Below, in pieces: positions 13,165-37,143 of a stretch of DNA of 64,000 bases. Position numbers and translations under genes: made by a program. How positions within the stretch are numbered: the stretch's first letter is position 1; each line of letters begins with the position of its first letter. The DNA lies in the IMG/VR virus record IMGVR_UViG_3300045988_119379, positions 87,113-151,112 of that record, one strand, 5' to 3'. The notes under the pieces are model-generated. The model ran no database searches. It had not been told where the DNA came from and was given only the letters and a program-made list of their open reading frames with translations. Origin of the DNA: a virus.

Positions 13165-16100
13165 ATGGCATCAACGTGTATTATTAAAAGAGATAATAAA
13201 AAGAAAGTTGTTTCTGTCTCTACCAGATCAGGGGATAGGTCTATGTTATTTGATAAAATAGCATCTATTCCTCTTATGGAGAACAGGGAACGGGCTACTA
13301 CTGTTTTTAAAACCGTATTTTCTAATAAGTTCTTAAAGGCTTTTGGCGACTGGAGAAAGAGAGTGCCTATCAACAAACAGGCCTACAATAAGGTGAAATC
13401 CAACATCGATCTTATTCCGGAAGCCTATAGAGAAAGGGTACTGGATAAGGCTTCTAAGATGAGTAATCCTGTTCTTGTGTCAAAATCAGATGCACCTTAT
13501 GAAATCCAAGAATCGGGCTTTGGATTTTACAGCCAAGATCTGGGTGATAATATTATGTTGGTAGATGCTATGGTCCCGTCAAGTATTTCCGTACCGGAAG
13601 AACCAGGAATAGACGCCGGGCAGTATCTACAAGATGCTATATCTTCGGACTTCACTCCCGTATCTATGGTACAGGATAAGGGTGTTAATTATATGGTTAT
13701 AAAGGACGGTCTTAAGATATTTAGCCCAGAAGAGTTACCAGAAACAGATTCTAATCCTGTGGGTGTAACGTATCAGACTGGAGAGCCTCGTTTGTTTTTC
13801 ATGAACGATCGTAGTCAATTATTTGAAGATTACGGAGAAGCTCTTCGCTCTGGCGGGAATGATATTAGAATAGGATTCTTATCAGGAACCGTTCAAGAAT
13901 CTACCGTGGATGGCGTGGCAGACATTACTTACAAAGCTGGAAAGTATGTTCTTAATAATCCCAAGTCTTTTATACCGGTCATGACCGCTTCTGCTTCTAC
14001 TTCTTTATCAACAAAAGGCGGGATAATTAACTACCTTATAAAGAAAGGTCTTTTGTCAGGATCTAAGATATTCGATTCTGAAACAAGAAGCTATCATCTT
14101 ACAGGAGAAGGTTATACAGGACAAATTAGACTTTTCAATTCAGCCTTATCATACACCGAGCTCCGTAATCATTTTGGTTCCGATGTTTCCATGAACGACC
14201 AAGGTATGATAACCATAAGCTCGTTGGATAACAGTAAGGTAACTATGAGACTCGCCACCGGAGGAACGGAAAGGGTTAGTGGGGAACAGATAAAGAACGA
14301 TCTTAAGTCAGGAAGATACAATGAATTGGACGCCAAGTACGATCATTTTGATGCGCTTGTAGTTTCATTCATATTAGAAGATAACGATCTTTATGCTGAT
14401 ACTAAAGCTAAGATCGTATCAGATTATAGCAGGCAGGAACGTGACCAACGAAATTCTATTGTCGAGATACTGAAAACTCTTGGCGTTAGTGTCATAGGTA
14501 TGACCGATTATATAGAGAAGTACCAAACCAAATACGGGCATGAACCTTCTGCTAAGGCATTGGCGGATATTGCCAATAACGTAATAGCAGTTGGTGAAGA
14601 TGCTACTTTATCTGATTTAGTAGAAGAAACAGCCCACTTCCTTGTAGAGGCATACAGAGATCAGAATGCTGTTGAGGCTGTTCTGCAAGATGTAGAAGGT
14701 ACGGAAGAGTGGAACCAGTATGCAGGTCAGTATTATAATACATACGGTAAAGCGTATGAAGGAGCTGAGCTTGATAATGCTGTTAGGAGAGAAATTCTTG
14801 GAAAGATCCTCGCCAGGGAGATGCAGACCGGCACAGCACAGGCGCCGGTAGAGCCCACCTCCTTCCTGGGGCGCGTCCGGCGGCTTTTCTCTGGAATAGT
14901 AAGCTGGCTTAAATCAGCTTTATCAACCCAAAGACAAGATTTGAATAACGTTATTAAAAACATTCGTGATCTTGCCATTACTGACATAGATAAAGGATTT
15001 GACACCTCTCTGTTAAAGGATAATGACTTTACATTATACTCCCTTTCTTCTATGAACAAGAACAAGTTTCTTGAGTCTAAGATCCTGGCATTAAGGAAAA
15101 CATTAAGAGACTTACGTCAGATAAGCTCTGATAGGGCTGTAACTACGTCTATGACCCTTGCGCAGCTTAAGACCATAGAAGATAAGATAAATAAAGTAGA
15201 GACCGAAATAGACAAGAATGAGATGGCGGCTGCCATGAACAGCATGATCTCCACAGCCGAAGCTCAGGTCAGATACTTAAGTAATGTGGTGAACACCATC
15301 CTTCATGGTGATACCAAAGACGGTAAGCTTCACTTCAATACCAATGATCGAAAGAACGTAGATATTATCAACAATCAGGTTCTTCCGATCATGAACGATC
15401 TTCGAGGATATATCCGTAACAGAAGTACCGAATTTGATGAACGTGAAAAGCAGGATTATACAAATAGGATCAATACCGTCATTGCCGACATCAATGGTAT
15501 TCAGTCTGATATTAAATCAGTACAAGACCTTGATGAAAGTACGTTGCTTGATAAGTTAATGAACGAACTTCATGTGCCGGCAGATAAGGTAAAGAGAGTA
15601 AAAGAATTTTTCGACAAGGTTCAACACGATGTTTCTTGGATAAGTAGGTGGTTTGGTATATTAGAGCATTCTTCCAGTCCGTTCAATAACGCTCTTGGAG
15701 CTATGATTGCCAAAGACAATTACAATGCGATGGTGAATGCCCAGCCCGCCATATCCGACTTCCTGGCATATGCTAAAAAGCATGGTTTTAACAAATCTGA
15801 ATTTGAAAAACTGCTTCAGAAAGTAGACGGCAAAACTTCTAATTACCTTCGTAGTGCTCTTGATATGGCTAAATACGATCGTAATAAGAAGCTGGCGCAG
15901 ATGCGAGCGTTTGCGACTGCCATGAACATAGAGATATCAGAAGAAGAAATTGGTGATGTGGTTGACAATAATCGTAATTACGTATTTAAAAGAGAAGTAG
16001 TTGACAAGGACGGAAATACGGTTACTGAAAACGCTAAATTTAAACCATCGTCCGATAGGGTTAATACCGATATTTTTACCATCGAGCAGGAAAAGATCTA

Positions 16101-19100
16101 TACGGAGCAGATGGAAAAGTGGGATGCTGAAAATTCAGAATTGGAATTTAGTGAAAGTTATGCCACAAGAATGGAATCCATATACAAAAAGGCTGAAGAA
16201 GAATTAGGACATCCGGTTTCTCAAACAACCAAAGAATACCTTAATGCCTTATCCCGGCAAAAACGGATATTGAGGCAGCCTTTTATTGATAGCGGTGGTA
16301 ATTTTGATGAGGTTGCCTACTATAAGAGTAGTAACTACGAAGAAGAAGGACTGCTTCGTAAACAACGTAAGGAGGCAGCTTCGGAATACATATATGTAGG
16401 AACCAGGAGAGTGGAAAAAACCGGCGACCAACTTAAGATGGCCAAAGAAATACAAGCCATAAATGAAGTTTGGAGAAAAGAATCAAATAATGCCACTAAT
16501 GCCGTATCAGAATCGTTTTTGCAAAAATTAAGAACGATTCAGAGCGAGTCTGGAGGAGAAGCTGCGCTGAAGACACTTATGTTGGGAGGTCACCTGTCAT
16601 TCAACGATCGGTTTTGGAATGATGTAGAATCAGAACAGTCGGCACGTACCGAATCAAATAACAAGGCTTCGTATCTTAAAATGGCGCATGATATCATTAG
16701 TTCTACGACAAGTGATAGAGATGCGACTGACGTGGATTCTATTGTGAAAGATATAGAAAAAAATAAGGCTATTATCAAGGAAATAATCGGAAACAATCGC
16801 GATGTGGCTGATATCGGAGAGATTAACGAAGCGACATTTACCTCATCTGAAAGAGATGCTTTTAGGGCCGCATCTGAAGCTATTGAAGCCGATTACGCTA
16901 TTTTGATAGATTATGCTAAGGTGGTGGGTCTTGAAGATATTGATAAGTACCTTACTAAAAGCAGTAAGGCTGAAAACGAAGTAAATCAGTCTTATTTAAA
17001 TGCTCTTGCTGACTCCAAGGAAGTGGAATGGAAGTTCGTACAACGTCATACTACGGCGAAGAAAGCAAAAAGGATTCAGGCTTTAAGGGATAAGCTGTTT
17101 AAGGCTGCTGATAACCGATATCTGTTTACCGTATCTGAAACCAACTACCTGTCAGAAAAGCTTGGTATAAGCAAAGAATTAGACGGTAGAGATTTCAGGA
17201 ATGCTGTTAATGCTAAGATGGCCAGCTTATTTTTAAATAATACAAGAGAAGAGGGCGTAGAAGAAGCTAATGCTATTGTTAATGAATTTGCCAGAAGCCA
17301 GGTTTTTTCGTACTATAAACGCATGGCGCCTACCGGATATGCAGCTATGATCGACAAAATCGGTCGAGGTGAGATAGATGTGGCGCAAATGGTTAAGGAC
17401 GTACAAAACGGTACATCCACCCAAGATTATGGCATGGACATATCGTACTTGTCTTTCGACCCTGCAAGGGCATGGGTGGCTGAATCTGAAGCCGAAAATA
17501 GCGGTCGTAATCCTGATTATGTAAAAGATCATGGGTATGGTCATCGAATGCCTAAGAAAAGCCTGTATCGTGACGAATCGTATTTCAATGACTTTGGTAT
17601 CAAGTATGATGCTGACGGTAATGAGGTTGCTACTAAAAACGTAGAGCAGTGGAATATGATTCAAAAACTCAAGGAAATAAAAAGACAATCCCTTGATCTA
17701 TACAAAGAGCAGAGCCCGAATCTGTATGCTATTCCACAGATATCCAAACAAGATATAGAACGTGTAGAAGGATTGGGTATTAACTTCAAAAATACGGTTC
17801 GTAATTTTGTATCAGATCTGTGCCTGGACAGAGTAGACGATTCTCTATATGGTAAGACCAGGCAAGGAGAAGTGTATGATCCAGAAGACAGGCTTAGGTC
17901 TATACCTAAATACTACATATATGAATTGGAGAACCAAGATGATGTATCTCACGATTTTGGCTACTCTTATTCGATGCTTATGATGCAGTCATCGTTATAC
18001 AACGAAAAGCAGAAGTCTATAGAGCTCGCTCAAGGACTGGAGCAGATGTTACTAAATAAACAATTTGAAGGTGGTAAAAAGGCTGAAGCAACCCAAGCAT
18101 ATCAGATGTTCAGGGACTTCTTCAACGATCATTATTATGGCATTAGAATGAACACCAAAAAACTTACGGTGAACATCGGAGGATATACGGTAGACCTTAC
18201 AAGAATTATGATGGCTGTTGAAAGGTTTATGTCGGTCATGAACTTGGCACTGTCTCCATTTGTGGCAGCTACCGGCGCCTTAACAGGTCATATCAACCTC
18301 ATCATGGAATCTGCCGTAGGACAGTATATAAGCAAAGACTCCCTTAAATACGCATCGGCTGAATTTTCACGCCTTGCTCCATCTTGTATAGCAGAAACCG
18401 GAGACATAGATAGGAAAAGCAAATTATATGTCATAGGTGAGAGAATGGGGATATTCAATATCCGAAATCGTATGTATGGTGCCGGATACAATAGAGCGGC
18501 CAGGACCTTAATGCGTTCGCCTATGTATGCTTTTATGGAAATCCTGAACTACCCTCTTGATCCGCAGGTTATGATTGCTACTATGGACAATGTTCGTTAT
18601 TACAAAGGCCGGTTCTACACGTTCCAAGATTTCAAGATGGAAAAAGAACGCAATAAAGAACAGAGTACCATAAAAAGAGAATGGAACGCATTAAAAGATC
18701 GTACTTTATGGAGTATGGTAGACGTCGTGGATGGGAAGGTGGTTGTAAAGCCAGGATCGGGTGTTACTGTTGAGGAAGTAGAAACCCAGATGGCTATAAC
18801 CAGAAATCAAGTTCGTAGCTTGTCGCAGATATGCAACGGATCTTTGAATGAAGAAAACCGAACTGCCGCATCGCGCAACTGGATAGCCAGGTTCATGACC
18901 GCCCACCGAGGATGGTTGGTGCTGTCGGCTCAACGTCTGTGGAAAAGACGTGGCTTCAATTTCCAGACAATGCAAGAAGAGGAAGGGTTGTCAATTACGT
19001 TAAAGAATATGATAGCCAAAACATTTAGCCTGGCTTCCGAGTCTGGTATGAAAAACATCATAGATGCCTGGAATGAAAATAAAGACAATATGAATGAGGT

Positions 19101-19587
19101 AGAAAAAACCAATCTCAAACGTCTCAGTGTCTATGCCGGCACGTTCCTTATCATGCAGGCCGTATCTATGCTTCTTGCCGGATGGCGTGATGATGATGAA
19201 AACGAAGAAAGTTGGCTTACTCAATTTGGATCCTATGTCGGATTCAGAACCATAAACGAAATAGCTTCACAGATGCCGTTTATTATGGAGCTTAACGTGG
19301 TAGATATCATTAACGATCCGTTTGTTATGGGGCGAAAACTGAAGGATCTTACCGATCTTAGGAATTATTCACTTGATAAAGTAACATCCGGTACATACAA
19401 GGGAGAGTCTAAGTTATTTAGGCAACTCGCCAAACAGACGTTTATCAAACAATGGTATAATATCAAGACGCCGGAAGACGTAGCGCGCGCCTATAATTGG
19501 TGGCAGCAGACGAACAACAAGTCAATGATGTTCTTCATCGGCGCTACTCCTGATTCGGAAGGGGACGATGATGTTAGCTACAAGTAG
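13165..19587 (+). CDS. giant hypothetical protein (2140 aa); coiled-coil rich; no recognised catalytic motif; possible virion/ejected cargo protein
   Basis: 6.4 kb uninterrupted ORF; TACCTTTG motif 27 nt upstream of ATG; terminator at 19724-19766. Confidence 0.75.
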   Translation: MASTCIIKRDNKKKVVSVSTRSGDRSMLFDKIASIPLMENRERATTVFKTVFSNKFLKAFGDWRKRVPINKQAYNKVKSNIDLIPEAYRERVLDKASKMSNPVLVSKSDAPYEIQESGFGFYSQDLGDNIMLVDAMVPSSISVPEEPGIDAGQYLQDAISSDFTPVSMVQDKGVNYMVIKDGLKIFSPEELPETDSNPVGVTYQTGEPRLFFMNDRSQLFEDYGEALRSGGNDIRIGFLSGTVQESTVDGVADITYKAGKYVLNNPKSFIPVMTASASTSLSTKGGIINYLIKKGLLSGSKIFDSETRSYHLTGEGYTGQIRLFNSALSYTELRNHFGSDVSMNDQGMITISSLDNSKVTMRLATGGTERVSGEQIKNDLKSGRYNELDAKYDHFDALVVSFILEDNDLYADTKAKIVSDYSRQERDQRNSIVEILKTLGVSVIGMTDYIEKYQTKYGHEPSAKALADIANNVIAVGEDATLSDLVEETAHFLVEAYRDQNAVEAVLQDVEGTEEWNQYAGQYYNTYGKAYEGAELDNAVRREILGKILAREMQTGTAQAPVEPTSFLGRVRRLFSGIVSWLKSALSTQRQDLNNVIKNIRDLAITDIDKGFDTSLLKDNDFTLYSLSSMNKNKFLESKILALRKTLRDLRQISSDRAVTTSMTLAQLKTIEDKINKVETEIDKNEMAAAMNSMISTAEAQVRYLSNVVNTILHGDTKDGKLHFNTNDRKNVDIINNQVLPIMNDLRGYIRNRSTEFDEREKQDYTNRINTVIADINGIQSDIKSVQDLDESTLLDKLMNELHVPADKVKRVKEFFDKVQHDVSWISRWFGILEHSSSPFNNALGAMIAKDNYNAMVNAQPAISDFLAYAKKHGFNKSEFEKLLQKVDGKTSNYLRSALDMAKYDRNKKLAQMRAFATAMNIEISEEEIGDVVDNNRNYVFKREVVDKDGNTVTENAKFKPSSDRVNTDIFTIEQEKIYTEQMEKWDAENSELEFSESYATRMESIYKKAEEELGHPVSQTTKEYLNALSRQKRILRQPFIDSGGNFDEVAYYKSSNYEEEGLLRKQRKEAASEYIYVGTRRVEKTGDQLKMAKEIQAINEVWRKESNNATNAVSESFLQKLRTIQSESGGEAALKTLMLGGHLSFNDRFWNDVESEQSARTESNNKASYLKMAHDIISSTTSDRDATDVDSIVKDIEKNKAIIKEIIGNNRDVADIGEINEATFTSSERDAFRAASEAIEADYAILIDYAKVVGLEDIDKYLTKSSKAENEVNQSYLNALADSKEVEWKFVQRHTTAKKAKRIQALRDKLFKAADNRYLFTVSETNYLSEKLGISKELDGRDFRNAVNAKMASLFLNNTREEGVEEANAIVNEFARSQVFSYYKRMAPTGYAAMIDKIGRGEIDVAQMVKDVQNGTSTQDYGMDISYLSFDPARAWVAESEAENSGRNPDYVKDHGYGHRMPKKSLYRDESYFNDFGIKYDADGNEVATKNVEQWNMIQKLKEIKRQSLDLYKEQSPNLYAIPQISKQDIERVEGLGINFKNTVRNFVSDLCLDRVDDSLYGKTRQGEVYDPEDRLRSIPKYYIYELENQDDVSHDFGYSYSMLMMQSSLYNEKQKSIELAQGLEQMLLNKQFEGGKKAEATQAYQMFRDFFNDHYYGIRMNTKKLTVNIGGYTVDLTRIMMAVERFMSVMNLALSPFVAATGALTGHINLIMESAVGQYISKDSLKYASAEFSRLAPSCIAETGDIDRKSKLYVIGERMGIFNIRNRMYGAGYNRAARTLMRSPMYAFMEILNYPLDPQVMIATMDNVRYYKGRFYTFQDFKMEKERNKEQSTIKREWNALKDRTLWSMVDVVDGKVVVKPGSGVTVEEVETQMAITRNQVRSLSQICNGSLNEENRTAASRNWIARFMTAHRGWLVLSAQRLWKRRGFNFQTMQEEEGLSITLKNMIAKTFSLASESGMKNIIDAWNENKDNMNEVEKTNLKRLSVYAGTFLIMQAVSMLLAGWRDDDENEESWLTQFGSYVGFRTINEIASQMPFIMELNVVDIINDPFVMGRKLKDLTDLRNYSLDKVTSGTYKGESKLFRQLAKQTFIKQWYNIKTPEDVARAYNWWQQTNNKSMMFFIGATPDSEGDDDVSYK

Positions 19588-22882: not shown

Positions 22883-23417
22883 CGTATTCGAATTTTAGAT
22901 TTTCAAGTTCGTGTATTTGTAACTTAAGAGACTTAATTAAATCCGTTCTCTGCTCCTCTGCATGTTTTAAAGCCTCTTCCTTGCTTTCAAAAGCACAATC
23001 CCCTATCTGATAAGGGGTGTAACGACCAGGAGTGTCGGCTAATAAAAGACCACCATAATCTTCTATTCTGGCTTTTACCTTTCTTATTTTCCCATCTTTT
23101 AGACACATGTCCGTAACCCATACGAATTTACCATATAATTTATCATACTTTTCTAATCTCTCTTCTTGCAATTCATACCATTTAGGCTTAGGAAATCTTA
23201 ATGTGAATTTAACCTCAGTATCTTTTTCTAAGACATTAATATCGTATGCTTCCGGCCACAGCTCTTTTATGCTGTCTTCGTCTTCGGCATACGCTACAAG
23301 TATGAATGAATCATCGGATTCACCACTACACCAATATGGATATTTTATAGGCCATTTGACTGGACGGTAGTCGTTATCGCAGTCGGATTTTTTAATGTAA
23401 AATCTTGTTCTAATCAT
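22875..23417 (-). CDS. hypothetical protein (180 aa)
   Basis: ORF in packed array. Confidence 0.55.
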   Translation of the reverse strand: MIRTRFYIKKSDCDNDYRPVKWPIKYPYWCSGESDDSFILVAYAEDEDSIKELWPEAYDINVLEKDTEVKFTLRFPKPKWYELQEERLEKYDKLYGKFVWVTDMCLKDGKIRKVKARIEDYGGLLLADTPGRYTPYQIGDCAFESKEEALKHAEEQRTDLIKSLKLQIHELENLKFEYDD

Positions 23418-24593
23418 GATTCTTTTATTCTTTTAAGTATATGTTCAATCACTTTAATAGTCCACCCGTTTCCCAACATCTTGTACTGTTGGGTTTCGCT
23501 GCATTCCCATTTATACCAATCTGGTACAGTCTGTAACCTGGAGCACTCTGTAGGGGTTAATCTTCTTATTCTGAAATCGCCATGTAATGTTCTCTGTATG
23601 ATAAAATTGTTTCTATCATATGAATTACAAGATAATGTTGGAGCCTTATCTTCATGAAATCCACCTTTGTTAAATCCTCTTGGTATTTGGAAAATAAGAT
23701 TATCTTCCTGAACTGTTGTGGGACAATTGGATTTTCCATCGTTTTTAAATTCAATCATCTGAACTGTTTTAAGACCAGATTCTCTACATGTAGGTTTTTC
23801 TGGATTCCTGCCTCTCATTGCTACACAAATAAGATCGTATGTGTATTTACCTTTTACGGTAACAGTATTGGATTTTTCATCTTTTGTTTTAATATTAGCT
23901 CCATAATAATTTCCCTTGTCGTGATTTCTTTTCAAGTGAAAAGCTAAATTGTTTAAAACTTTTTCAGATAAGTAATATTTTTCATCTACTTCATATTCAG
24001 CTATATCACTTATGGTCAAACCTTCGTCTTCAGGTTGAGGAATAATGCCGCCTTGAATATTAGTCCAATAAATACGTTTCCTGACTTGAGCGGAAACAAG
24101 TGCTGAATTAATATGATTGCCTTTACACCCTATAGTATCATCGAATACCGGCTCCCATTTCTTTCCCATCTTAACGTTCTCAAGAAGAAACAACACATCA
24201 GGATTAGTTTTTCTTACATCATTCAAAATACGAATAAACTCCCAGAATAAGTAAGACTGACCGGCAAATTCAAATCCTTGTTTTTTTTAATTCAAGATAC
24301 TCATTAAGTGATTTGATTTCTATTCCTTCTACGGTAGACAACCCTTTTCTTTTTCCAGAAAAGGACATATCCGTACATGGGCTGCCGGCTAAAATAAGAT
24401 CTATGTGTCCAAGATCTTCTACATTCAAATCCCTTACATCTCCTACTTGTATAGTATTAGGGAAATTTAATTGCGTTTGTTTAATAGCAAACTTATCTAT
24501 TTCTGATGCATAATATACTTCAGGTGTGATCCCTATTTCTTTTAACGCTATTTGACCACATGACATTCCGTCAAATAAACTTAACACTCTCAT
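23414..24593 (-). CDS. DNA (cytosine-5)-methyltransferase, split by a +1 frameshift at an A8 tract (24281-24288). N-part 24270-24593, C-part 23414-24226/24289.
   Basis: motif I MRVLSLFDGMSCG, motif IV GSPCTDMS, then after frameshift FEF...ENV (LFLLENV) and C-terminal GNGWT; removing one A restores ...LELKKQGFEFAGQSYLFWEF... Confidence 0.75.
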
Positions 24594-28741: not shown

Positions 28742-29117
28742 CGCAATCTATTTTACTGTTTTTTGAAAGTTCTATTATCGCCTCCTTTAGCATTTCTCTC
28801 GCTTTATTCTCATTATCTTCAAACAGACATACACTGCATGTAGCACCTTTGGAGGGGTAGTCTCTGTAGGCTTCTGCTCTTTCTACAACGTATTCACAAC
28901 AATAGTCGTGACTCATGTCTTTTGCTATACTTATAAAATGATCTTCTCCATCCATCAACACGCAATATTCAGCATCGTTTTCACATGCAATAACACCTTT
29001 GTTTTTTAAAATGGATAGCACTTTATTTCCAAAAAGTCCAATATAGACCCATATATCTTTCCCTGCATTTTTGTAAAAAATATCCATCCCTTCTTTGATT
29101 GTGACTTTCTTTTCCAT
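28731..29117 (-). CDS. hypothetical protein (128 aa)
   Basis: ORF. Confidence 0.5.
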   Translation of the reverse strand: MEKKVTIKEGMDIFYKNAGKDIWVYIGLFGNKVLSILKNKGVIACENDAEYCVLMDGEDHFISIAKDMSHDYCCEYVVERAEAYRDYPSKGATCSVCLFEDNENKAREMLKEAIIELSKNSKIDCDGL

Positions 29118-29123
29118 AACCCC

Positions 29124-29447
29124 TTATTTTATATCAGTAATTAAAATATATTTTTTAACAATATATTCAAGACTCTCAGAAGAACGTATATATAGTTTTT
29201 CTTCGTACTCATATAGAGCGTACCCTTCTTTTATGTCTAATATCTTAATCACATGCTTGCCTCTTTCAAATGGATCCTCAAAGTAGTTCTTATGTTCGTA
29301 TCTTTGACCTACTTTGATTTTGTCAGTTTTCTTCTTCATCTTATAACGATCTACTGCTTCACCTGTTTTTATGAAAATTGTCGTGAGCAAGTATAATAAA
29401 ACTAAATACAAAAGGATCGCTACTCCACATATTAGATCTTCTTTCAT
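29124..29447 (-). CDS. hypothetical protein with N-terminal TM helix (107 aa)
   Basis: ORF; hydrophobic N-terminus. Confidence 0.5.
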   Translation of the reverse strand: MKEDLICGVAILLYLVLLYLLTTIFIKTGEAVDRYKMKKKTDKIKVGQRYEHKNYFEDPFERGKHVIKILDIKEGYALYEYEEKLYIRSSESLEYIVKKYILITDIK

Positions 29448-29617
29448 TGCACTCCCTTTAAGTAGTTAAACCAAATAGCCTCAAGTTTCTCCTGGAACTC
29501 AAACGCCTTTTTAAAATTTCTGCACCGTACCGCCACGTTCCTCATCTCTTCAAGATATATGACTTCCGGATCTTGCCGGTATTTTGTTCTTAACTTTTGA
29601 ACGTCCTCGTATTTCAT
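29444..29617 (-). CDS. small ORF (57 aa) not in supplied track, ATGA-coupled at both ends between the Cas4-like gene and the 107-aa gene
   Basis: ATG overlaps upstream TGA (29614-29617) and its TGA overlaps downstream ATG (29444-29447). Confidence 0.45.
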   Translation of the reverse strand: MKYEDVQKLRTKYRQDPEVIYLEEMRNVAVRCRNFKKAFEFQEKLEAIWFNYLKGVQ

Positions 29618-30633
29618 CGATTTATCTTTTTAGACGGATCCCAATCTGAAGAGAAAGGGCATTCGTTTTTGTTATGTAATCCAAAGTCACAATAATAACA
29701 CAGTGCCGACGGGCAGGGTAGCTTGTTTTGCGAAACAGGCTGGCTTAGGGTGGCACGCCGCTTGCTATATCTGGCCCCTTCTGCTCCCTGGATGTACGCT
29801 TGAAATGATTTTACACTATTATCTTCAAAATCATACATTTTAGATAAAGTGTCATTTAGCATTTCTATAGATTTTGTTTTACGCTCTTCATCCACCTTAA
29901 CCTTTTGGTACTGTCTGGTCCTGGTAAAGAAATAGATGTTCATATCTGGCAGAACTCCACCATATTTTCTATAGATGTAAAACGAATATATAGGATGCTG
30001 TAAATTCGTTTCCAACTTCTTAGAATCAAAAACCTTATTACCTGATTTCCAATCTATGACATAATGGTGAACTACGTTCTTGCTCTTTATAGCCAGATGA
30101 AGATCCACCGATCCTACTATGTACACATGAGTATGAACGGTCCCATTTATATCAACAGGCTTAGGAAGACGGTACGGCAGCACAAAATCTTCTTCGACTC
30201 CAACTATAGCACCGTGTCTAATAAGTTTCTCGCAGGGATTAAGATCACTATCAGCTATCATAAACTTATTCCCGTCTTTTTTAAACAGATCCACAATCCA
30301 AGCAAGAAGCTCCCCGGATTGCTTCATGGCTATCATCATATTTTCCGGTGATTGCCAAGGTATGTCTTCTTGATAGGAATAGTAACTTATTGCTTCTCCA
30401 AGGTCTTTACCAGAAGGCTGTCTTCCGTTCTTAAAAAAGTATTCCAGTGTCTTATGGATAACCGTACCATAAGACGTAGCTTCTTGTTTTTCCGTAGACC
30501 TTTTGCCCTCTACGTAAGTCTTATACCATTTCATTGGACAGGTAAGAAACGTATCTATCTGGGAATAAGATATGGCAAGACGTTTTACACCATTAAACTC
30601 CTTATATAGCAAATGCGTTTCCGGGACCATCAT
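29614..30633 (-). CDS. Cas4/RecB-family PD-(D/E)XK exonuclease with Fe-S cluster cysteines (339 aa)
   Basis: N-terminal SYSQIDTFLTCPMKWY, core VGSVDL...IDWKSG (D...D/ExK), C-terminal CPCPSALCYYC...C cluster. Confidence 0.55.
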   Translation of the reverse strand: MMVPETHLLYKEFNGVKRLAISYSQIDTFLTCPMKWYKTYVEGKRSTEKQEATSYGTVIHKTLEYFFKNGRQPSGKDLGEAISYYSYQEDIPWQSPENMMIAMKQSGELLAWIVDLFKKDGNKFMIADSDLNPCEKLIRHGAIVGVEEDFVLPYRLPKPVDINGTVHTHVYIVGSVDLHLAIKSKNVVHHYVIDWKSGNKVFDSKKLETNLQHPIYSFYIYRKYGGVLPDMNIYFFTRTRQYQKVKVDEERKTKSIEMLNDTLSKMYDFEDNSVKSFQAYIQGAEGARYSKRRATLSQPVSQNKLPCPSALCYYCDFGLHNKNECPFSSDWDPSKKINR

Positions 30634-30989
30634 AAGTCATTGTCTTTAAATCCTTCCGGGTAATATACGACATACTTCTTACCGTCTTCTGGTGTCATGG
30701 CAAACTGCATGTAGTTATTACGATTACGATGCTTGCCATCTAATCCTCGCTTCCAATACAGAATCCCATCTATATCCACATAAGACCGTCCGCGTTCGGC
30801 TCTAACTACGTCCGTGTGTAGCAGATACCCGTCGGAAGACACAATCCATACTTTATCCCCTTTGTTTAAATAAGATATTCTTTTTCTTACAACAACCTTT
30901 TTCTTATTATCTAATGCAAATTCTTCATCCGTCATATTCTTCATCCTCCTCTTCTTCTGTTTCAAAATCAATTCCATGACACTGATCAT
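30630..30989 (-). CDS. hypothetical protein (119 aa)
   Basis: ORF. Confidence 0.5.
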   Translation of the reverse strand: MISVMELILKQKKRRMKNMTDEEFALDNKKKVVVRKRISYLNKGDKVWIVSSDGYLLHTDVVRAERGRSYVDIDGILYWKRGLDGKHRNRNNYMQFAMTPEDGKKYVVYYPEGFKDNDL

Positions 30990-31103
30990 AATGCTTGGTC
31001 AGTTCTTCTGGTTCTAAATCTTGTCCAAAATCCATGTTAAAAATATTGTAATTAGTAAAGCACTGTCCCTGCCGGCAGGAAATCTATGAATGCTGCTTTT
31101 GCT

Positions 31104-31125
31104 TCTTCAATTAGGCCCAAGTGTA
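31104..31125. terminator. GC-rich hairpin GGCCCAAG-tgtaac-CTTGGGCC just 3' of the flotillin gene; T-run lies on the + side, so orientation is ambiguous
   Basis: perfect 8-bp stem; adjacent 12-bp palindrome CCTGCCGGCAGG at 31068-31079. Confidence 0.35.
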
Positions 31126-31142
31126 ACCTTGGGCCATTGTAT

Positions 31143-32843
31143 TTATTTTTTGTCATCTCCTTTTAACTTCTTTAAAGTATCTGCAATCGGAAGCTGATCA
31201 ATGACTCCCAATGCCGGAGCAACGGCCTTAACAACATTGTTAAGGAAATTACCGGTGCTGTTCTGACCGCCGTCAAATACCGTGATATTTCCGAGATTGA
31301 TGTGCTCGAACGCCTTAACCTGTTCTCCAGCAATTTCTTTCCACTGATTAACCATCTTGTACTGGATGGCGATCTGAGGATTGGATTCTGCTGCTTCCAC
31401 CATAGCCTTAAATCCGTCGGCTTCTGCCATCAACGACTTTTTCTTACCTTCGGCTTCCGCTTCCAGCTTCATCTGAATAGCTTTTGCTTCCGCCTCTGCT
31501 TTTGCCAAATGTGCTGCTGCTTCAGCATCGGCCCGGCGTTTGATCTTCTCAGCTTCAGCATCAGCTTGCAAGATAGCCTCTTCCTTCTGGGTTTCAGCCG
31601 GCACAATCTTTTCAGCTTTAAGCGCAGCTTGAACCTTCTTAGCTTTAGCTTCTTCCACTTCTTTATCAGCAAGCTCTTTTGCCGTTTTCACAGCCGCTTC
31701 CGATTTAACTTTCTCTTCCCCGGCTTTCTTTTCTGATTGAGCTTTGATAACCTGCAATTCTGATTCTGATACAGCAACCTCTTTCTGGGCATTGTTGTAG
31801 CCTACAGAAGCATTTTTCTCAGCTTCAGCTTTCTTAATCTGAGCTTCAGAGTCTTGTATTGCTATAGCTGCTTGTTTGTCAGCTTCAGCTTTATTCTTCC
31901 CAACTTCTTCCATTCTTTCGGCTTCAGCTTTGTTTACTTCAAGTTCCGCCTTAGATCTTGCGATCGCTGATTCCTTGTCAGCCAAAGTCTTTGCTATAGC
32001 CGCAGCCCTATCTCTATCGGCTTGAGCTACACCGATCTGTTTTTCTTTATCGGTTAAAGCCAAAGCTACTTCTTTTTCTTTCTTTGTTTCAGCTACTACC
32101 GTTTCTTTTTCTTTTTCAGTATAGGCAATTTGAATCTCTTGCTCTTTTTGGGTATTAGCTACAGCCGTTTCTTTTTCCTTCTGTTGTACAGCAATCTTAA
32201 TAGCACCCAGCTTTTCCTGTTCTTCGATATTAGCCTGTGCTTCGTTCAGAGCCTTGCTTTCAGCCTCTTTACCAAGATTCATGATGTAGCCGGCTTCATC
32301 TCTGATGTCACTGATGTTAATGTTCAAAAGATAAAGACCCAATTTATTAAGTTCGTTATCAATGTTTTTTCTTGCCTTATCCAAAAACTCATCCCTATCA
32401 GAATTAAGTTTTTCGATTGTCATTTCGGCAATAATCAAACGCATCTGACCGTAAACGATGTCTGTAATAAGATTTTCAGTAGATTCGGTATCCATCCCCA
32501 AAAGTCTTTCTGCTGCATTTTGCATGATTTCAGGATTTGTACTGATAGCTACTGTAATAGTTGTAGGCACATCTACTCTAATATTCTGAGATGACAAAGC
32601 ACCAGTAAGCCTACAATCTATTTGCATAGGCTCCATAGATAAAATATCATAGCTTTGGATAATAGGCAACACGAATGCTGCTCCACCATGATATAATTTC
32701 GCCGATTTCTTTTCCCCACCTGTCTTACCGTAAACGACCAAAACCTGATTAGGCTTGCATCTACGATACCTTGATAAGACTCCGATGATTGTCAAAATAA
32801 TCACTACAGCTAAGATAGCTGACACGTACATGATCGTTGTCAT
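31143..32843 (-). CDS. flotillin-like SPFH/band-7 protein (FloT/YuaG-like, 566 aa): N-terminal membrane hairpin, SPFH domain, long Glu/Ala-rich coiled-coil flotillin repeat region
   Basis: N-terminus MTTIMYVSAILAVVIILTIIGVLSRYRRCKPNQVLVVYG resembles B. subtilis FloT; EA-repeat coiled coil. Confidence 0.75.
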   Translation of the reverse strand: MTTIMYVSAILAVVIILTIIGVLSRYRRCKPNQVLVVYGKTGGEKKSAKLYHGGAAFVLPIIQSYDILSMEPMQIDCRLTGALSSQNIRVDVPTTITVAISTNPEIMQNAAERLLGMDTESTENLITDIVYGQMRLIIAEMTIEKLNSDRDEFLDKARKNIDNELNKLGLYLLNINISDIRDEAGYIMNLGKEAESKALNEAQANIEEQEKLGAIKIAVQQKEKETAVANTQKEQEIQIAYTEKEKETVVAETKKEKEVALALTDKEKQIGVAQADRDRAAAIAKTLADKESAIARSKAELEVNKAEAERMEEVGKNKAEADKQAAIAIQDSEAQIKKAEAEKNASVGYNNAQKEVAVSESELQVIKAQSEKKAGEEKVKSEAAVKTAKELADKEVEEAKAKKVQAALKAEKIVPAETQKEEAILQADAEAEKIKRRADAEAAAHLAKAEAEAKAIQMKLEAEAEGKKKSLMAEADGFKAMVEAAESNPQIAIQYKMVNQWKEIAGEQVKAFEHINLGNITVFDGGQNSTGNFLNNVVKAVAPALGVIDQLPIADTLKKLKGDDKK

Positions 32844-32876
32844 AACTTTTAAAATTTAATTGTTGATATAAAAAAA

Positions 32877-33371
32877 TTAGATACTTAATTCTCCTTCTTC
32901 GTATTTTATGTTCACCTTGTCACCATTTTTGTAATTTTTCCCAGACAAGCACCTTACTCTCATCTGTTCCTGTCTCCCGTTTTTCACAATATTTACCATA
33001 TAATGGTTCTTTCCTGATCTAAATACTATCTCCACCTCTCTGCCATTTAAATCTTCTGGACATTCGTACACCATTTCTTGTTTTAACTTAAGAAGTAACT
33101 TATATACGTAAAACAAAACGATAAAGAAAAACGACCCTATCACAACCCCTACTAAATGAGAACCCGAAAAGTAGGTAGTCCAGCTATATCCAAGGATGAA
33201 ATGTGTTATGCCCTTGAATGATATGATGTCCGACAAAGACATACTTAAATCAGAAGCACTGTCAATGTCAATATCCGTATCCAGATCAGATCCTAATATC
33301 GACAACAAAAACTGTATAACAAAAGCAAATGACGCTATTAAAGCCATGCATAAAATTATATCATTTCCCAT
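32877..33371 (-). CDS. NfeD-like membrane protein (164 aa): about 3 TM helices plus C-terminal OB-fold-like beta domain; canonical partner of SPFH proteins
   Basis: TM segments then GREVEIVF...GKNHYMVNI...MRVRC...GDKVNIKYEEGEL; position immediately upstream of flotillin. Confidence 0.5.
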   Translation of the reverse strand: MGNDIILCMALIASFAFVIQFLLSILGSDLDTDIDIDSASDLSMSLSDIISFKGITHFILGYSWTTYFSGSHLVGVVIGSFFFIVLFYVYKLLLKLKQEMVYECPEDLNGREVEIVFRSGKNHYMVNIVKNGRQEQMRVRCLSGKNYKNGDKVNIKYEEGELSI

Positions 33372-33612
33372 ATCCTTCTGTTATTATTTTGTAAACAAGA
33401 TCAGTCATATCTTTGATGGATTCTGTATCATAATCAATAATAACGATATTGAATTTTTGTTCCACCATCGCATCAAGCTCAATTCGATCAATAGAATCTA
33501 ATCCAAGTTCTTTAAACGACACATCTTCTTCATGAACTATATCCATTTCCGAATTAAGAAACTGAGTAATAATTATATCCTCTATTATCTTTCTAATTCT
33601 TACTTTTTCCAT
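33361..33612 (-). CDS. acyl carrier protein (83 aa) with phosphopantetheine-attachment motif LGLDSIDRIELDAMVE
   Basis: close match to AcpP signature [23 protein letters not shown]; overlaps NfeD start by 11 nt. Confidence 0.7.
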   Translation of the reverse strand: MEKVRIRKIIEDIIITQFLNSEMDIVHEEDVSFKELGLDSIDRIELDAMVEQKFNIVIIDYDTESIKDMTDLVYKIITEGYGK

Positions 33613-34313
33613 TGCTTTCTAATTTTGTTAAATAAATACGTTTTTATGTTTTTCAATCGCTCTTTATCTGTCTCCGAGCTTCCGGTAAACAAATAATCCG
33701 GATTGCCTTTAGCCGGCGGCGTAGGCAATTTAGATACGGCAAACAACCAATCCATTTCCTTATTCTTCTTAGACTCCAAATAAGGCTCGGTAGCGATCTT
33801 AAATTTTTCAGCTATTAAGTCAAAGAGCTTTGAATTTTTAAGGTTCATATGGACTGAAAAAGCCTGAGAAGGCGGTTTCCATATGAAGTTACATAAGCTC
33901 ATTGTATAATCTCCTGACTCTGCTATATAAGATTCCGTTACCTGAAGTATGACCTCTTTCTTGAATGAGGTGTTACCCATAAACCAACACAATCTGGATT
34001 CCGCTTCTTTTCTGCTGACACCTATGTCTTTTGAATACGATTCGTACATTCCTATCATAATCTTCAACGTTTCCTGAACCTCGTCTGTCATCTCCGGTGT
34101 CTCTATATAATTCACAAAAGACGTTCCTTTGTTGGTTAATCTCATCACACCTGATTTTAATTTCTCAACCAGGCCAAGCTCTATATACCTCCCAGCATCT
34201 TCTTTCGGCATGGCTTCGATCATAACCGAATCCTTCTGTCTTATGGCAAGAAGATTAGCAAGATCATTAGGAGTCATGTTTGATGCTGCAAGTTGTCTGA
34301 AATTGATGTACAT
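33600..34313 (-). CDS. hypothetical protein (237 aa), first gene of the ACP-NfeD-flotillin string
   Basis: ORF overlapping ACP start by 13 nt. Confidence 0.5.
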   Translation of the reverse strand: MYINFRQLAASNMTPNDLANLLAIRQKDSVMIEAMPKEDAGRYIELGLVEKLKSGVMRLTNKGTSFVNYIETPEMTDEVQETLKIMIGMYESYSKDIGVSRKEAESRLCWFMGNTSFKKEVILQVTESYIAESGDYTMSLCNFIWKPPSQAFSVHMNLKNSKLFDLIAEKFKIATEPYLESKKNKEMDWLFAVSKLPTPPAKGNPDYLFTGSSETDKERLKNIKTYLFNKIRKQWKK

Positions 34314-34315
34314 GC

Positions 34316-34513
34316 CTAATCAGCTTTAATGAAAATAACATTCTTTTTGTCTTCTCTTTCTGCACAATCGCATGGACCAATAGTCCCATCTCTAAATGAA
34401 CATGACATACAATCTTCAAATATACATCCATCGCATGTATCATTTTCCACGCATTTCAATTTTACAAATCCGGCAGTAAATACTTCTCCTACTTTAAATT
34501 CCTTCTTTTCCAT
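34316..34513 (-). CDS. small Cys-rich protein (65 aa; CVENDTCDGCIFEDCMSCSFRDGTIGPCDC)
   Basis: start moved to internal ATG preceded by AAGGAGGG; 8 Cys. Confidence 0.45.
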   Translation of the reverse strand: MEKKEFKVGEVFTAGFVKLKCVENDTCDGCIFEDCMSCSFRDGTIGPCDCAEREDKKNVIFIKAD

Positions 34514-34529
34514 ATTCCCTCCTTGTTTT

Positions 34530-35132
34530 TTAACTGTTGTACCCTTCTTTAATAATCGAATTTCTACCGGTAGATACCGACTGTCTAAGATCGTCATGTA
34601 CAGAATCTACCGTAGAGTACTTGTTTCTGGTTGTAAAAATCACTTCCAGCATCTCCTTGTAATCACCTAAAGCTACTTCGTATCTCGGATCTACTTTGGC
34701 TTTTCTTTCAGCCTCGGCATTACTTTTAGCCAGCTCCCGGTCGAGGAGGTCTTCTTTGATTCGGTCAGCAATCATATCAAGTTCTTTTTTAATAACTTCT
34801 CCTGCTGCCCGAAGTTGACCTTCTACGTCACCAAGCTGGTCTTGGACGGTTCCTATTTCTTTCTTTAGGCGATCGTATTCGTTAATCATACCCATATCAC
34901 CTGCATAGCCGGAAAAGTCCTTGATTATTCTGGTTCCTTCTTTAAGGAGCTCAATAACTCGTCTTTTACGTTCTCTGCTTATTAAAGACGGAAGACGATA
35001 ATTCATATCCGCCACCGCCTTATCATGTATGGAGTTGATTAAAAACATCTCTCTTTCATCTCCTGCAAACTCAGTAAGAACCAAAAGGAACTTACTTATC
35101 AGGTATTCGTTTTCTTCTACTGTTAGTCTCAT
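34530..35132 (-). CDS. hypothetical coiled-coil protein (200 aa)
   Basis: ORF. Confidence 0.5.
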   Translation of the reverse strand: MRLTVEENEYLISKFLLVLTEFAGDEREMFLINSIHDKAVADMNYRLPSLISRERKRRVIELLKEGTRIIKDFSGYAGDMGMINEYDRLKKEIGTVQDQLGDVEGQLRAAGEVIKKELDMIADRIKEDLLDRELAKSNAEAERKAKVDPRYEVALGDYKEMLEVIFTTRNKYSTVDSVHDDLRQSVSTGRNSIIKEGYNS

Positions 35133-35148
35133 GGTTCTTATTTTTTTT

Positions 35149-36276
35149 TTAATACAATGACTGTTCTTCTTTTGTCTCTTGTTCCTGATTGTCCGTAACG
35201 TCTTCCACAGTATAGAGCTTAGGCGGCGTCGGCGGCTGGTTGGGGTTCACGAACTTCGTCCCGCCCTCCCCGTACATCCATCCATGCCCCGGCAGAATCT
35301 CTGGGTGGATTGTATTAGTAAGCTCTTCCATACTAACTTGCCTTACCTTCAGTATATGATGAAACACCAGTCCGGCTGTCCTGAATGATGTTTTGTTTTC
35401 AGTTTTAAACCTATCAAGAGTCTGATACCAATCTTTCCCAAATATCATATACTTATCCAGCCCGTACCTACGAGGATTGTGCAAACCTATCATTAACGTA
35501 CATAACTGACCCAGCGTATCAGATTGGTAAAAATCAGAAAGACGCGGAGGCTGCTCTTGTGGGCTTTTTATCCTTCCTTCTATCTCTCTGTTGAATTGGG
35601 ATATGATGAGGAAAAATATGTTTTTATATACTAATTTAGCTTCGTTCATAACCGCCACCAAATCATCTATAGCCGACTTAGGATCTAATCCCATTCTTTT
35701 TATCAAAGCAATATGATCGACTTTAAATATTATAAGACGTTTGTCTTTGTGTTTGGTAGCTATATGATACACAGCCGCCTCAAACTCTTTTACCGTACAC
35801 GGAGCATCTATGTATATTATATTATTCCTAATTTCACCTTGAAGGATTTCAAACATCCTCATCTCTTCCACTGTATTATAATCTTGCCTTCTTAATATTT
35901 CAGGAGCTCTTTTTTTCATATCCTGGCTCATTCTGCGAAGAAGAAGATCTTGAGGATTCATTTCGAACTCGCAATTGACAAGAAAATAATCTTCTGCTTG
36001 CGGGTTGATCATCGGATTCATCACATTTTTCAATATCTTTTGGGCCACATACGATTTACCTACAGATGGCCGGGCTCCTATGGCAATAGCGTGCTGAGGA
36101 AAAATACCTCCAAGCAAAGCCTCATCAATATAATCGTATCCGGTTTTAGCGGGGATAAGCTCTCCCCGTCTGTATTTCAGAATATTCTCATACGCCTCTT
36201 CCATAACCTGTTTAGAGGTCTTGAATATCCTTCTTATATCTATCCTATTTGCTATCTCCTCTTGCATTTTTGTCAC
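35149..36276 (-). CDS. DnaB-family replicative helicase-like RecA-fold ATPase (375 aa)
   Basis: Walker A GARPSVGKS; Walker B IIFKVDH; motif ISQFNREIEGR...RLSDFYQSDTLGQL matches DnaB LSQLNR...SDLRESGxIEQ. Confidence 0.65.
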   Translation of the reverse strand: MTKMQEEIANRIDIRRIFKTSKQVMEEAYENILKYRRGELIPAKTGYDYIDEALLGGIFPQHAIAIGARPSVGKSYVAQKILKNVMNPMINPQAEDYFLVNCEFEMNPQDLLLRRMSQDMKKRAPEILRRQDYNTVEEMRMFEILQGEIRNNIIYIDAPCTVKEFEAAVYHIATKHKDKRLIIFKVDHIALIKRMGLDPKSAIDDLVAVMNEAKLVYKNIFFLIISQFNREIEGRIKSPQEQPPRLSDFYQSDTLGQLCTLMIGLHNPRRYGLDKYMIFGKDWYQTLDRFKTENKTSFRTAGLVFHHILKVRQVSMEELTNTIHPEILPGHGWMYGEGGTKFVNPNQPPTPPKLYTVEDVTDNQEQETKEEQSLY

Positions 36277-36568
36277 CTTTCGTATCCGATTTGGATCCCC
36301 TATTAGCTTTTACTGATTTATACCTAAGACCGTTCTTGGTATGAGAACAATCCTTGCCTTTTCTCCAGCCCTTACCCTTCTTCTTGTCCGTTTCGTAGTT
36401 TTTACGACCAAGCTCTCGGCGTTTGGCTTTCTGTTCCGGTCTGGCATTTATCTCCTTGTCCTTTTTAGCCTTTTTCTTCCTGGCTTCGGGATGAGTCCTG
36501 TAGTACTCTGTTGATCTGCCCATGTGCTTATATTTTTTTTTGATTAATAATAGCACAAAGATAGGCAA
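36245..36568 (-). CDS. highly basic Lys/Arg-rich protein (about 92-107 aa; possible nucleic-acid-binding)
   Basis: ORF; KKKAKKDK, KKKGKGWRKGK; A9 tract near its 5' end. Confidence 0.45.
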   Translation of the reverse strand: MPIFVLLLIKKKYKHMGRSTEYYRTHPEARKKKAKKDKEINARPEQKAKRRELGRKNYETDKKKGKGWRKGKDCSHTKNGLRYKSVKANRGSKSDTKGDKNARGDSK

Positions 36569-36576
36569 TTCGCGCC

Positions 36577-37143
36577 CTATTTCAACCTGCCGTAGCTCAT
36601 ATCAGGATCACACCAAACATACCCGTCTTTCTCATCATGAAGATACTCAGGACATCCTCTACATGCGCTACTGCCTGACACTATTTGATTGTTTTTGTTA
36701 GGGCACTTATCTCCAGGCTTATGCCATTCTATTCTCGAACCTGATCGCTCTTTGTTTACATGACAGAACTGAAAGATTTTCCCCATCGTCTTCTCGCCGA
36801 ACATACCTATATGTGTGTACTCTTCCGGTATAGCGAGAAATTCAGATAAATCTTTATACATCCTTTTCCGTTCCTCCGGCGTAGACCATAGTCTGTCAAG
36901 TTCGGTATGGACTCTTATCTTAAGAGACCTCAGTGATGGCCCCGCAAGTCGGCCTTTAGCTTTTCCCTTATTCGGCCCTGATTCATGAACACCGACATAA
37001 GCATTGCATGGTTTACACATCATAACCATCCCTAAGCCTTTTCTGCTATATATTTTATCGGCATTGACCAACTCGGTTTCTCTTCCACAATAAGGACAAA
37101 TTTCGCCTCTTAAAACCCGTTGTTGGCGCTCATTAAGTTCCAT
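36577..37143 (-). CDS. zinc-ribbon protein (188 aa; CPYCG...CKPCN and C-terminal CRGC)
   Basis: ORF; paired CxxC motifs. Confidence 0.5.
   Translation of the reverse strand: MELNERQQRVLRGEICPYCGRETELVNADKIYSRKGLGMVMMCKPCNAYVGVHESGPNKGKAKGRLAGPSLRSLKIRVHTELDRLWSTPEERKRMYKDLSEFLAIPEEYTHIGMFGEKTMGKIFQFCHVNKERSGSRIEWHKPGDKCPNKNNQIVSGSSACRGCPEYLHDEKDGYVWCDPDMSYGRLK

Follow-up and report, generated by a model that had tools for sequence, protein, structure and literature searches.

What bacterial flotillins do is debated, and they have been regarded as lipid-raft scaffolds, as regulators of membrane fluidity or as ATP-independent holdases. Flotillin genes typically come second in an operon that starts with NfeD, and in Staphylococcus aureus the flotillin FloA is bound at its coiled coil by the OB-like cytoplasmic domain of NfeD, which stabilizes FloA oligomers, the FloA-NfeD complex holding unfolded membrane proteins without ATP and being needed under stress (PMC11222466). 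Other described pairs are Bacillus subtilis YuaF(NfeD2)-FloT and Escherichia coli YqiJ-YqiK, the latter consisting of a DUF1449/YqiJ_N plus YqiJ_OB protein followed by a flotillin. In this study we analyzed a 64,000-nt stretch of viral DNA (IMG/VR record IMGVR_UViG_3300045988_119379, positions 87,113 to 151,112; hereafter the window), whose minus strand encodes a flotillin-family protein of 566 amino acids (aa; positions 31143-32843) and, directly upstream and co-oriented, a 164-aa NfeD-like partner (32877-33371), with an AT-rich spacer of 33 nt (32844-32876) between the stop codon of the partner and the start codon of the flotillin. Upstream of this pair lie the genes of an acyl carrier protein (ACP) and of a 237-aa protein, and the initial annotation had taken all four for a single ACP-NfeD-flotillin operon. 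The comparisons below point instead to a two-gene cassette of Bacteroidales type that is carried by an abundant gut phage lineage and is separate from the ACP and 237-aa genes.

The identity of the flotillin was evaluated from Pfam matches, residue composition and hydropathy. The protein starts with a membrane anchor (residues 1-29, the only segment with hydropathy above 1.6), which is followed by an SPFH/Band-7 domain (residues 30-211; PF01145, E = 2.5e-25, 90 bits against a cut-off of 23.6), an A/E/K-rich region (residues 212-449; 22.7% A, 16.8% E and 16.4% K, with 21 EA/AE dipeptides), the composition of which suggests a coiled coil, and a C-terminal domain (residues 450-559; PF15975, E = 1.8e-9, 38.2 bits against a cut-off of 27). 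Judged from this sequence layout, it is a full-length member of the flotillin family, in agreement with the initial annotation. The description "strongly FloT-like" was overstated, as the NCBIfam FloT model (NF058507) scored 146 bits against a cut-off of 700 and matched residues 9-275 alone, so that the protein is not a FloT orthologue. E. coli YqiK aligned with it over its full length (E = 8e-21, 24% identity). Strains differ in coiled-coil length, giving proteins of 467-597 aa, and a PADLOC scan found no defense-family match for either the flotillin or its partner.

The partner was characterized by its predicted fold, topology and gene context. Three helices were predicted (residues 2-25, 52-69 and 72-101), with hydropathy windows above 1.6 at residues 1-30 and 67-96; an acidic D-x-D-x-D loop lies past helix 1, and the C-terminal domain, at approximately residues 105-164, is predicted to form a five-stranded OB-like beta-barrel. 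YqiJ is likewise a multi-transmembrane (TM) protein with a C-terminal OB domain, and the YqiJ-YqiK pair has the same two-gene architecture and similar sizes. At the level of family models, however, Pfam and NCBIfam detected no NfeD: the phage partner had no usable match in the Pfam, NCBIfam, PHROGs and PADLOC scans, and neither it nor four Bacteroidales homologues matched a Pfam NfeD or YqiJ model at E≤0.1-1. As a control, Pfam picked up YqiJ itself (YqiJ_N and YqiJ_OB, models PF07290 and PF21001) but NCBIfam did not, and the tested Bacteroidales partners were missed by both. A full-database profile search yielded a partner family of at least 403 representatives at 50% identity, mostly 160-180 aa long, and four of its 68 aligned members matched PF01957 (best E = 6e-5), which was the top family by member count, tied with one other. 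Searched against the PDB, a profile of the C-terminal domain matched YuaF (2k14) at E = 0.34, the sole natural protein aligned over the whole domain among matches otherwise dominated by designed repeat proteins; the full-length family profile gave TM-helix noise only against PDB sequences, and an hhalign comparison of the family with E. coli YqiJ was insignificant (E = 0.05, probability 1%). Compared with S. aureus NfeD-FloA and B. subtilis YuaF-FloT, sequence similarity is marginal and PF01957 misses the phage partner, and the phage pair, with a putative function, occurs in a viral context. Predicted fold, topology and gene context together support an NfeD-like protein belonging to an uncurated family whose PF01957 membership is undemonstrated, and only in this structural and contextual sense does the earlier NfeD assignment hold.

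The surrounding DNA is that of a phage. Window positions 29000-37000 were 95.1% identical to a human gut phage genome of 151,256 bp (OR575929.1, deposited as "phage csAssE-Sib", i.e. crAssE-Sib), and the remaining window was collinear with crAssE-Sib positions 86,416-151,256 at 91-94% identity. The crAssE-Sib genome carries terminase, portal, major capsid, ring and muzzle protein genes and a diversity-generating retroelement, and this collinearity disposes of the concern that a host chromosomal segment had been misread as phage. crAssE-Sib is an epsilon crAss-like phage placed in the proposed genus Epsilonunovirus (PMC11054128). In public metagenomes its lineage is highly abundant, clusters comprising approximately 2,400-3,000 member sequences.

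The best chromosomal counterparts of the pair were found almost exclusively in Bacteroidales. A bacterial scan with a single genome for each GTDB species yielded at least 411 relatives; the best 80 were 62-66% identical to the phage flotillin (tblastn), and nearly all of these 80 came from Bacteroidales (Bacteroides, Parabacteroides, Prevotella, Phocaeicola, Leyella and Xylanibacter), the exceptions by title being two "uncultured bacterium" bins and one Coprobacillus-labelled bin. A partner homologue (29-42% identical) was located directly upstream of the flotillin gene in 79 of these 80 loci, which bears out the proposal that the two phage genes form the canonical partner-flotillin pair; the ACP, the 237-aa gene, DnaB and the exonuclease were found within 5 kb in none of the 80. 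A more distant flotillin (P0158; 50% identical to that of the phage) was encoded on a bacterial contig, with pgi, lysS, aroC and genes of that kind around it, and was again directly preceded by a partner gene, the 165-aa product of which was 38% identical to the phage partner (E = 1e-38). Both genes of the phage pair thus have homologues in the Bacteroidales pairs (L003 and L006-L085), with the same order, strand and domain layout and a short spacer (approximately 42-45 nt in the bacteria vs 33 nt in the phage), whereas the phage copies sit in a replication module and lack housekeeping neighbors. The 165-aa Bacteroidales partner was recognized by no Pfam or NCBIfam model in the proteins tested, and it is probably annotated in reference genomes merely as a hypothetical or membrane protein.

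Identity levels were then used to evaluate the age and direction of the transfer. The flotillins of different Bacteroidales genera were 82-94% identical to one another, compared with 65-69% between the phage flotillin and any of them, and the partners were 39-84% identical among bacteria and 29-42% identical between phage and bacteria. The phage flotillin therefore falls outside the tight Bacteroidales cluster, and none of the sampled host genera was its recent source; these distances would fit either an old acquisition or an acquisition followed by accelerated divergence. We infer by parsimony that the pair moved from host to phage, because almost all of the sampled Bacteroidales chromosomes have it and the epsilon crAss-like loci L172-L174, L257 and L258 (see below) lack it. 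Relative to crAssE-Sib, dN/dS was 0.034 for the flotillin, 0.052 for the partner, 0.036 for DnaB and 0.057 for the exonuclease, and the flotillin ratio relative to the more diverged L166 was 0.054, a comparison in which dS is near saturation. To judge from these ratios, the phage pair is under strong purifying selection, equal to that on DnaB and the exonuclease, and the phage copies are functional. The ACP gave dN/dS of 0.33-0.47, approximately ten times the values of its neighbors. Between phage lineages the partner diverged further than the flotillin (62% vs 83% identity).

The genomic position of the cassette was resolved through the 237-aa gene (33600-34313, minus strand), since the initial searches were dominated by near-identical genomes and distant lineages were reached via 237-aa homologues and by re-ranking on the flotillin of Vibrio phage KIT04. 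The 237-aa homologues, down to 36% identity, occurred on contigs of 131-157 kb, in which the gene still follows a DnaB-like helicase gene. Between the 237-aa gene and a PD-(D/E)XK exonuclease gene, five such loci contained cargo other than NfeD/flotillin: one 101-aa gene in L257, two small genes in L174, a DPBB protein gene in L173, and an ACP gene, a C5-methylase gene and two radical-SAM genes in both L172 and L258, the ACP gene following the 237-aa gene in the latter two. The order 237-aa gene, ACP, NfeD-like, flotillin was shared by 79-80 of 80 close IMG/VR contigs and by the diverged lineages L166-L168, where the flotillin was 69-83% identical and, in L166, the partner 62% identical to that of the window. 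The interval from the 237-aa gene to the exonuclease (window 29614-34313) is therefore a hypervariable cargo slot of epsilon crAss-like phages. The 237-aa protein itself had no usable match in Pfam, PHROGs or NCBIfam; according to its predicted fold it is a winged-helix (MarR-like) protein, encoded by a conserved replication-module gene outside the cassette. Two other identities were discarded, namely LmuC, the sole PADLOC match, which was weak (E = 0.004), and a phosphopantetheinyl transferase (PPTase) of the similarly sized Sfp type, since there was no ACPS match and the fold consists of a MarR-like winged helix and an unmatched helical domain.

The ACP (83 aa; 33361-33612, minus strand) was confirmed as such, with the qualification that it is divergent. 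PF00550 scored 26.7 bits against a cut-off of 20.8, phrog_5934 ("acyl carrier protein") matched at E = 8.8e-8, and the motif LGLDSID is present, whereas the models of the housekeeping AcpP gave approximately 29 bits against cut-offs of 70-71 (TIGR00517 and NF002148); by these sequence criteria it is a phage-type ACP. PHROG 5934, filed under "moron, auxiliary metabolic gene and host takeover", comprises the phage ACPs, with which the window protein shares the DSL-type serine. The carrier serine (LGLDS[I/V/L]D) was kept in 77 of 81 tblastn ACP matches across close viral loci, while the ACP-like genes of the flotillin-less L172 (7675-7938) and L258 (6675-6938) encode GFDDLD, and these related proteins cannot be phosphopantetheinylated because Asp replaces the carrier serine. 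A further difference from other phage ACPs is the lack of annotated partner enzymes, no PPTase, acyltransferase or Fab gene being annotated anywhere in the 151-kb phage genome; any 4'-phosphopantetheinylation and acyl loading of the ACP would need a host enzyme. On the most parsimonious reading, the 237-aa gene is core to the replication module, and the ACP is older than, or independent of, the cassette.

Gene packing was next examined for evidence of a four-gene unit. All four open reading frames (ORFs) are indeed on the minus strand, and the 237-aa and ACP genes overlap by 13 nt and the ACP and NfeD-like genes by 11 nt; the description of the four as overlapping fails only at the NfeD-like/flotillin junction, where the genes are 33 nt apart. 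However, the four lie in a minus-strand block of more than 40 kb in which overlaps of 4-68 nt are common (neighboring junctions of -4, -4, -4 and -68 nt), and because overlaps are the norm across this co-oriented block, tight packing is no mark of a four-gene operon. Approximately 10 nt past the flotillin stop codon, where the intergenic gap of 153 nt is the widest in the block, there is a perfect 8-bp GC-rich hairpin, GGCCCAAG-N6-CTTGGGCC (31114-31135), which was found by a terminator-like scan and direct reading and may be a candidate 3' boundary of the cassette or an RNA-stabilizing element. In relatives, ORFs of 50-52 aa were called across the hairpin position. Scans of the region for sigma-70 promoters and for terminators returned no more sites than shuffled sequence did, the promoters of Bacteroidetes and crAss-like phages lying outside the models.

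Flotillin genes were also found in other large phages. Nine INPHARED records matched the window flotillin, and beyond crAssE-Sib only Vibrio phage KIT04 (Demerecviridae) had a full-length one (28% identity, annotated as "flotillin family protein"). The gene directly upstream, KIT04_049 (L002:3680-3928), encodes 82 aa with three TM segments and an acidic TDLDD motif past helix 1; the product is similar to the membrane portion of NfeD-like/YqiJ-type partners, lacks an OB domain and is missed by the hidden Markov model of the partner family. In MT835492, a putative gut phage of 121 kb, a flotillin-like gene (517 aa) stands without a partner. Within IMG/VR 3300045988, contigs of the L203 type (L203-L223; 93-270 kb), a second gut lineage, encode a 173-aa partner and a 653-aa flotillin with only ORFans as neighbors, and a probable tRNA lies approximately 3 kb upstream of this pair. 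A partner-family gene is likewise directly upstream of the flotillin gene in L210, where the neighbors include HNH homing endonucleases, in L243, and in the putatively viral environmental contigs L176-L190. The flotillins of KIT04, MT835492, the L203 type, L210 and L243 resemble that of the window in being full-length anchor-SPFH-coiled-coil proteins encoded in large phage genomes; they differ in sequence (26-47% identity) and in having no adjacent ACP or 237-aa gene, and no homologue of either gene was found beside the flotillin in L176-L190. The pairs of L203-type contigs, L210 and L243, which are putative viral contigs, may be independent acquisitions by other large phages. A broader proposal, to which we assign a low probability, is that large phages of several unrelated lineages (epsilon crAss-like phages, a second gut lineage and Vibrio T5-like phages) repeatedly captured flotillins, some with a partner, for virus-specific membrane microdomains or cages, and that the serine-bearing ACP could have been secondarily recruited in the epsilon lineage. 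Were it true, such microdomains would go beyond supplementing a housekeeping function of the host: they would offer either a dedicated membrane platform on which replication or assembly takes place, or protection from superinfection and from abortive-infection effectors that target the membrane.

Based on these comparisons, we consider it probable, though by no means certain, that an epsilon crAss-like sub-lineage took an NfeD-like/flotillin cassette from a Bacteroidota host of Bacteroidales type and uses it as a membrane scaffold or holdase, the ACP and 237-aa genes being separate. The cassette would have been inserted into the hypervariable slot between the 237-aa/ACP genes and the PD-(D/E)XK exonuclease gene, and its location inside the replication gene block suggests co-expression with early or middle genes. 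During infection, the flotillin would enter the inner membrane by its N-terminal anchor and oligomerize via the A/E-rich coiled coil, and the co-evolved partner that the phage itself supplies would dock on it with its cytoplasmic OB domain; assembly and docking of this kind are proposed by analogy with S. aureus FloA-NfeD and B. subtilis FloT-YuaF. Since the phage carries its own co-diverging partner, the complex is likely to be self-contained. Such a scaffold or holdase could stabilize membrane proteins, or the integrity of the membrane or envelope, in a stressed and energy-depleted host until lysis, and this stabilization would protect the phage yield.

Other explanations were weighed against this cassette reading. 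That the 237-aa gene, ACP, NfeD and flotillin work as one system, lipids being remodeled for a flotillin microdomain by acyl transfer linked to the ACP, would agree with their co-oriented, overlapping packing and with an order conserved in all close relatives and in L166-L168; the retention of the carrier serine in flotillin-bearing lineages, compared with Asp in L172 and L258, is a residual hint drawn from very few independent lineages. The comparative evidence nevertheless separates the members, in that the predicted DNA-binding winged-helix protein adjoins DnaB in flotillin-less phages, the ACP and 237-aa genes occur without the pair in L172 and L258, and neither gene adjoins the pair in any of the 80 bacterial loci or in any non-epsilon viral lineage. 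When the genome's want of annotated acyl-transfer enzymes, the tenfold weaker constraint on the ACP (0.33-0.47 vs 0.03-0.05) and the ordinariness of overlaps in this block are added, an ACP-linked four-gene system becomes very unlikely, and we abandon that part of the initial annotation. Still less credible is an artifact, either host DNA mis-assembled or mis-binned into the phage or a decaying passenger gene pair: although the nearest homologues are chromosomal Bacteroidales genes, no bacterium exceeds 62-69% identity, phage replication genes stand on both flanks, and the same arrangement recurs in the independently assembled 151-kb genome, in at least 80 IMG/VR contigs and in many Logan/ENA contigs. 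Together with the collinearity, these recurrences and the strong selection (intact ORFs, dN/dS of approximately 0.03-0.05) led us to reject contamination and misassembly.

Two further readings accept the pair as a functional phage cassette and assign it a different role. The phage pair might co-assemble with, displace or reorganize host flotillin microdomains, with the purpose of excluding superinfection, blunting membrane-acting abortive-infection effectors or anchoring replication or assembly at the membrane. A specialized phage role of this sort fits a flotillin that is diverged from those of the sampled hosts yet strongly constrained, as well as the position of the pair inside the replication module and the recurrence of flotillin-like genes in unrelated phages (KIT04, MT835492 and other IMG/VR lineages); the absence of any PADLOC defense-family match, the putative viral nature of several other flotillin-bearing contigs and a co-evolved partner that argues for an autonomous complex make us regard such subversion as possible but not likely. 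If the phages are temperate, the pair could alternatively be a lysogenic-conversion moron that, expressed from the prophage, makes the Bacteroidales lysogen more tolerant of stress. Both repressor and anti-repressor genes, as well as related Parabacteroides prophages, have been reported for these phages, while two of three prediction tools call the lifestyle lytic (PMC11054128), and the S. aureus NfeD-flotillin pair promotes survival under stress (PMC11222466). Past the flotillin gene, the GC-rich hairpin and an intergenic gap wider than any other in the block would make a moron-like 3' boundary, but the overlap of the NfeD-like with the ACP gene leaves no intergenic room for a separate promoter at the 5' end, a long replication operon surrounds the cassette, and the host already has a pair of its own. 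We therefore hold the moron to be improbable, and retain the scaffold or holdase cassette as the preferred explanation.

As regards novelty, the earlier statement that such a locus had not been described needs to be divided. GenBank labels the four crAssE-Sib genes as hypothetical protein, acyl carrier protein, transmembrane protein and flotillin family protein, and homologues are named "flotillin" in the JGI annotation, so that the kinds of component are known and the flotillin and ACP labels were already public. In contrast, the words flotillin, acyl carrier, NfeD and membrane do not occur in the text of the paper describing the phage (PMC11054128), and no paper on a phage-encoded NfeD/flotillin was found in the searchable literature, subscription journals being outside its coverage; only unrelated papers were returned, such as one on phage Perkons, which integrates into the host floA gene. 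New in this study are the recognition of the "transmembrane protein" as an NfeD-like partner, the placement of the pair as a strongly selected cassette of Bacteroidales type within a gut phage lineage of high abundance, and its separation from the ACP and 237-aa genes. Bacteroidales are dominant in the gut. That a virus keeps its own flotillin and partner under selection of helicase strength indicates the importance of this machinery when Bacteroidales are infected, and the Bacteroidales themselves possess an NfeD-like partner family that is conserved and uncurated and escapes Pfam and NCBIfam. In practical terms, an over-extended four-gene reading is corrected and the "transmembrane protein" annotation is upgraded.

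Several other features of the window were recorded. Directly upstream of the 237-aa gene, a Cys-rich protein of 93 aa is encoded at 34316-34597 (minus strand), and its gene is the most variable of the neighborhood (56-81% identity, in contigs with 97-100% identity elsewhere). At approximately 21 kb of the window, plus-strand structural genes give way to the minus-strand replication block, and the switch coincides with a change of sign in GC skew. Two giant plus-strand ORFs at 65-5626 and 13165-19587 (1853 aa and 2140 aa) had no Pfam match and correspond to "structural protein" genes in crAssE-Sib. A C5-cytosine methyltransferase ORF at 23414-24550 (minus strand) encodes 270 aa from a TTG start and matches positions 150-323 of Pfam DNA_methylase; stop codons crowd the frame upstream of it, crAssE-Sib has a 375-aa gene at this place, and the window copy may be frameshifted or split.

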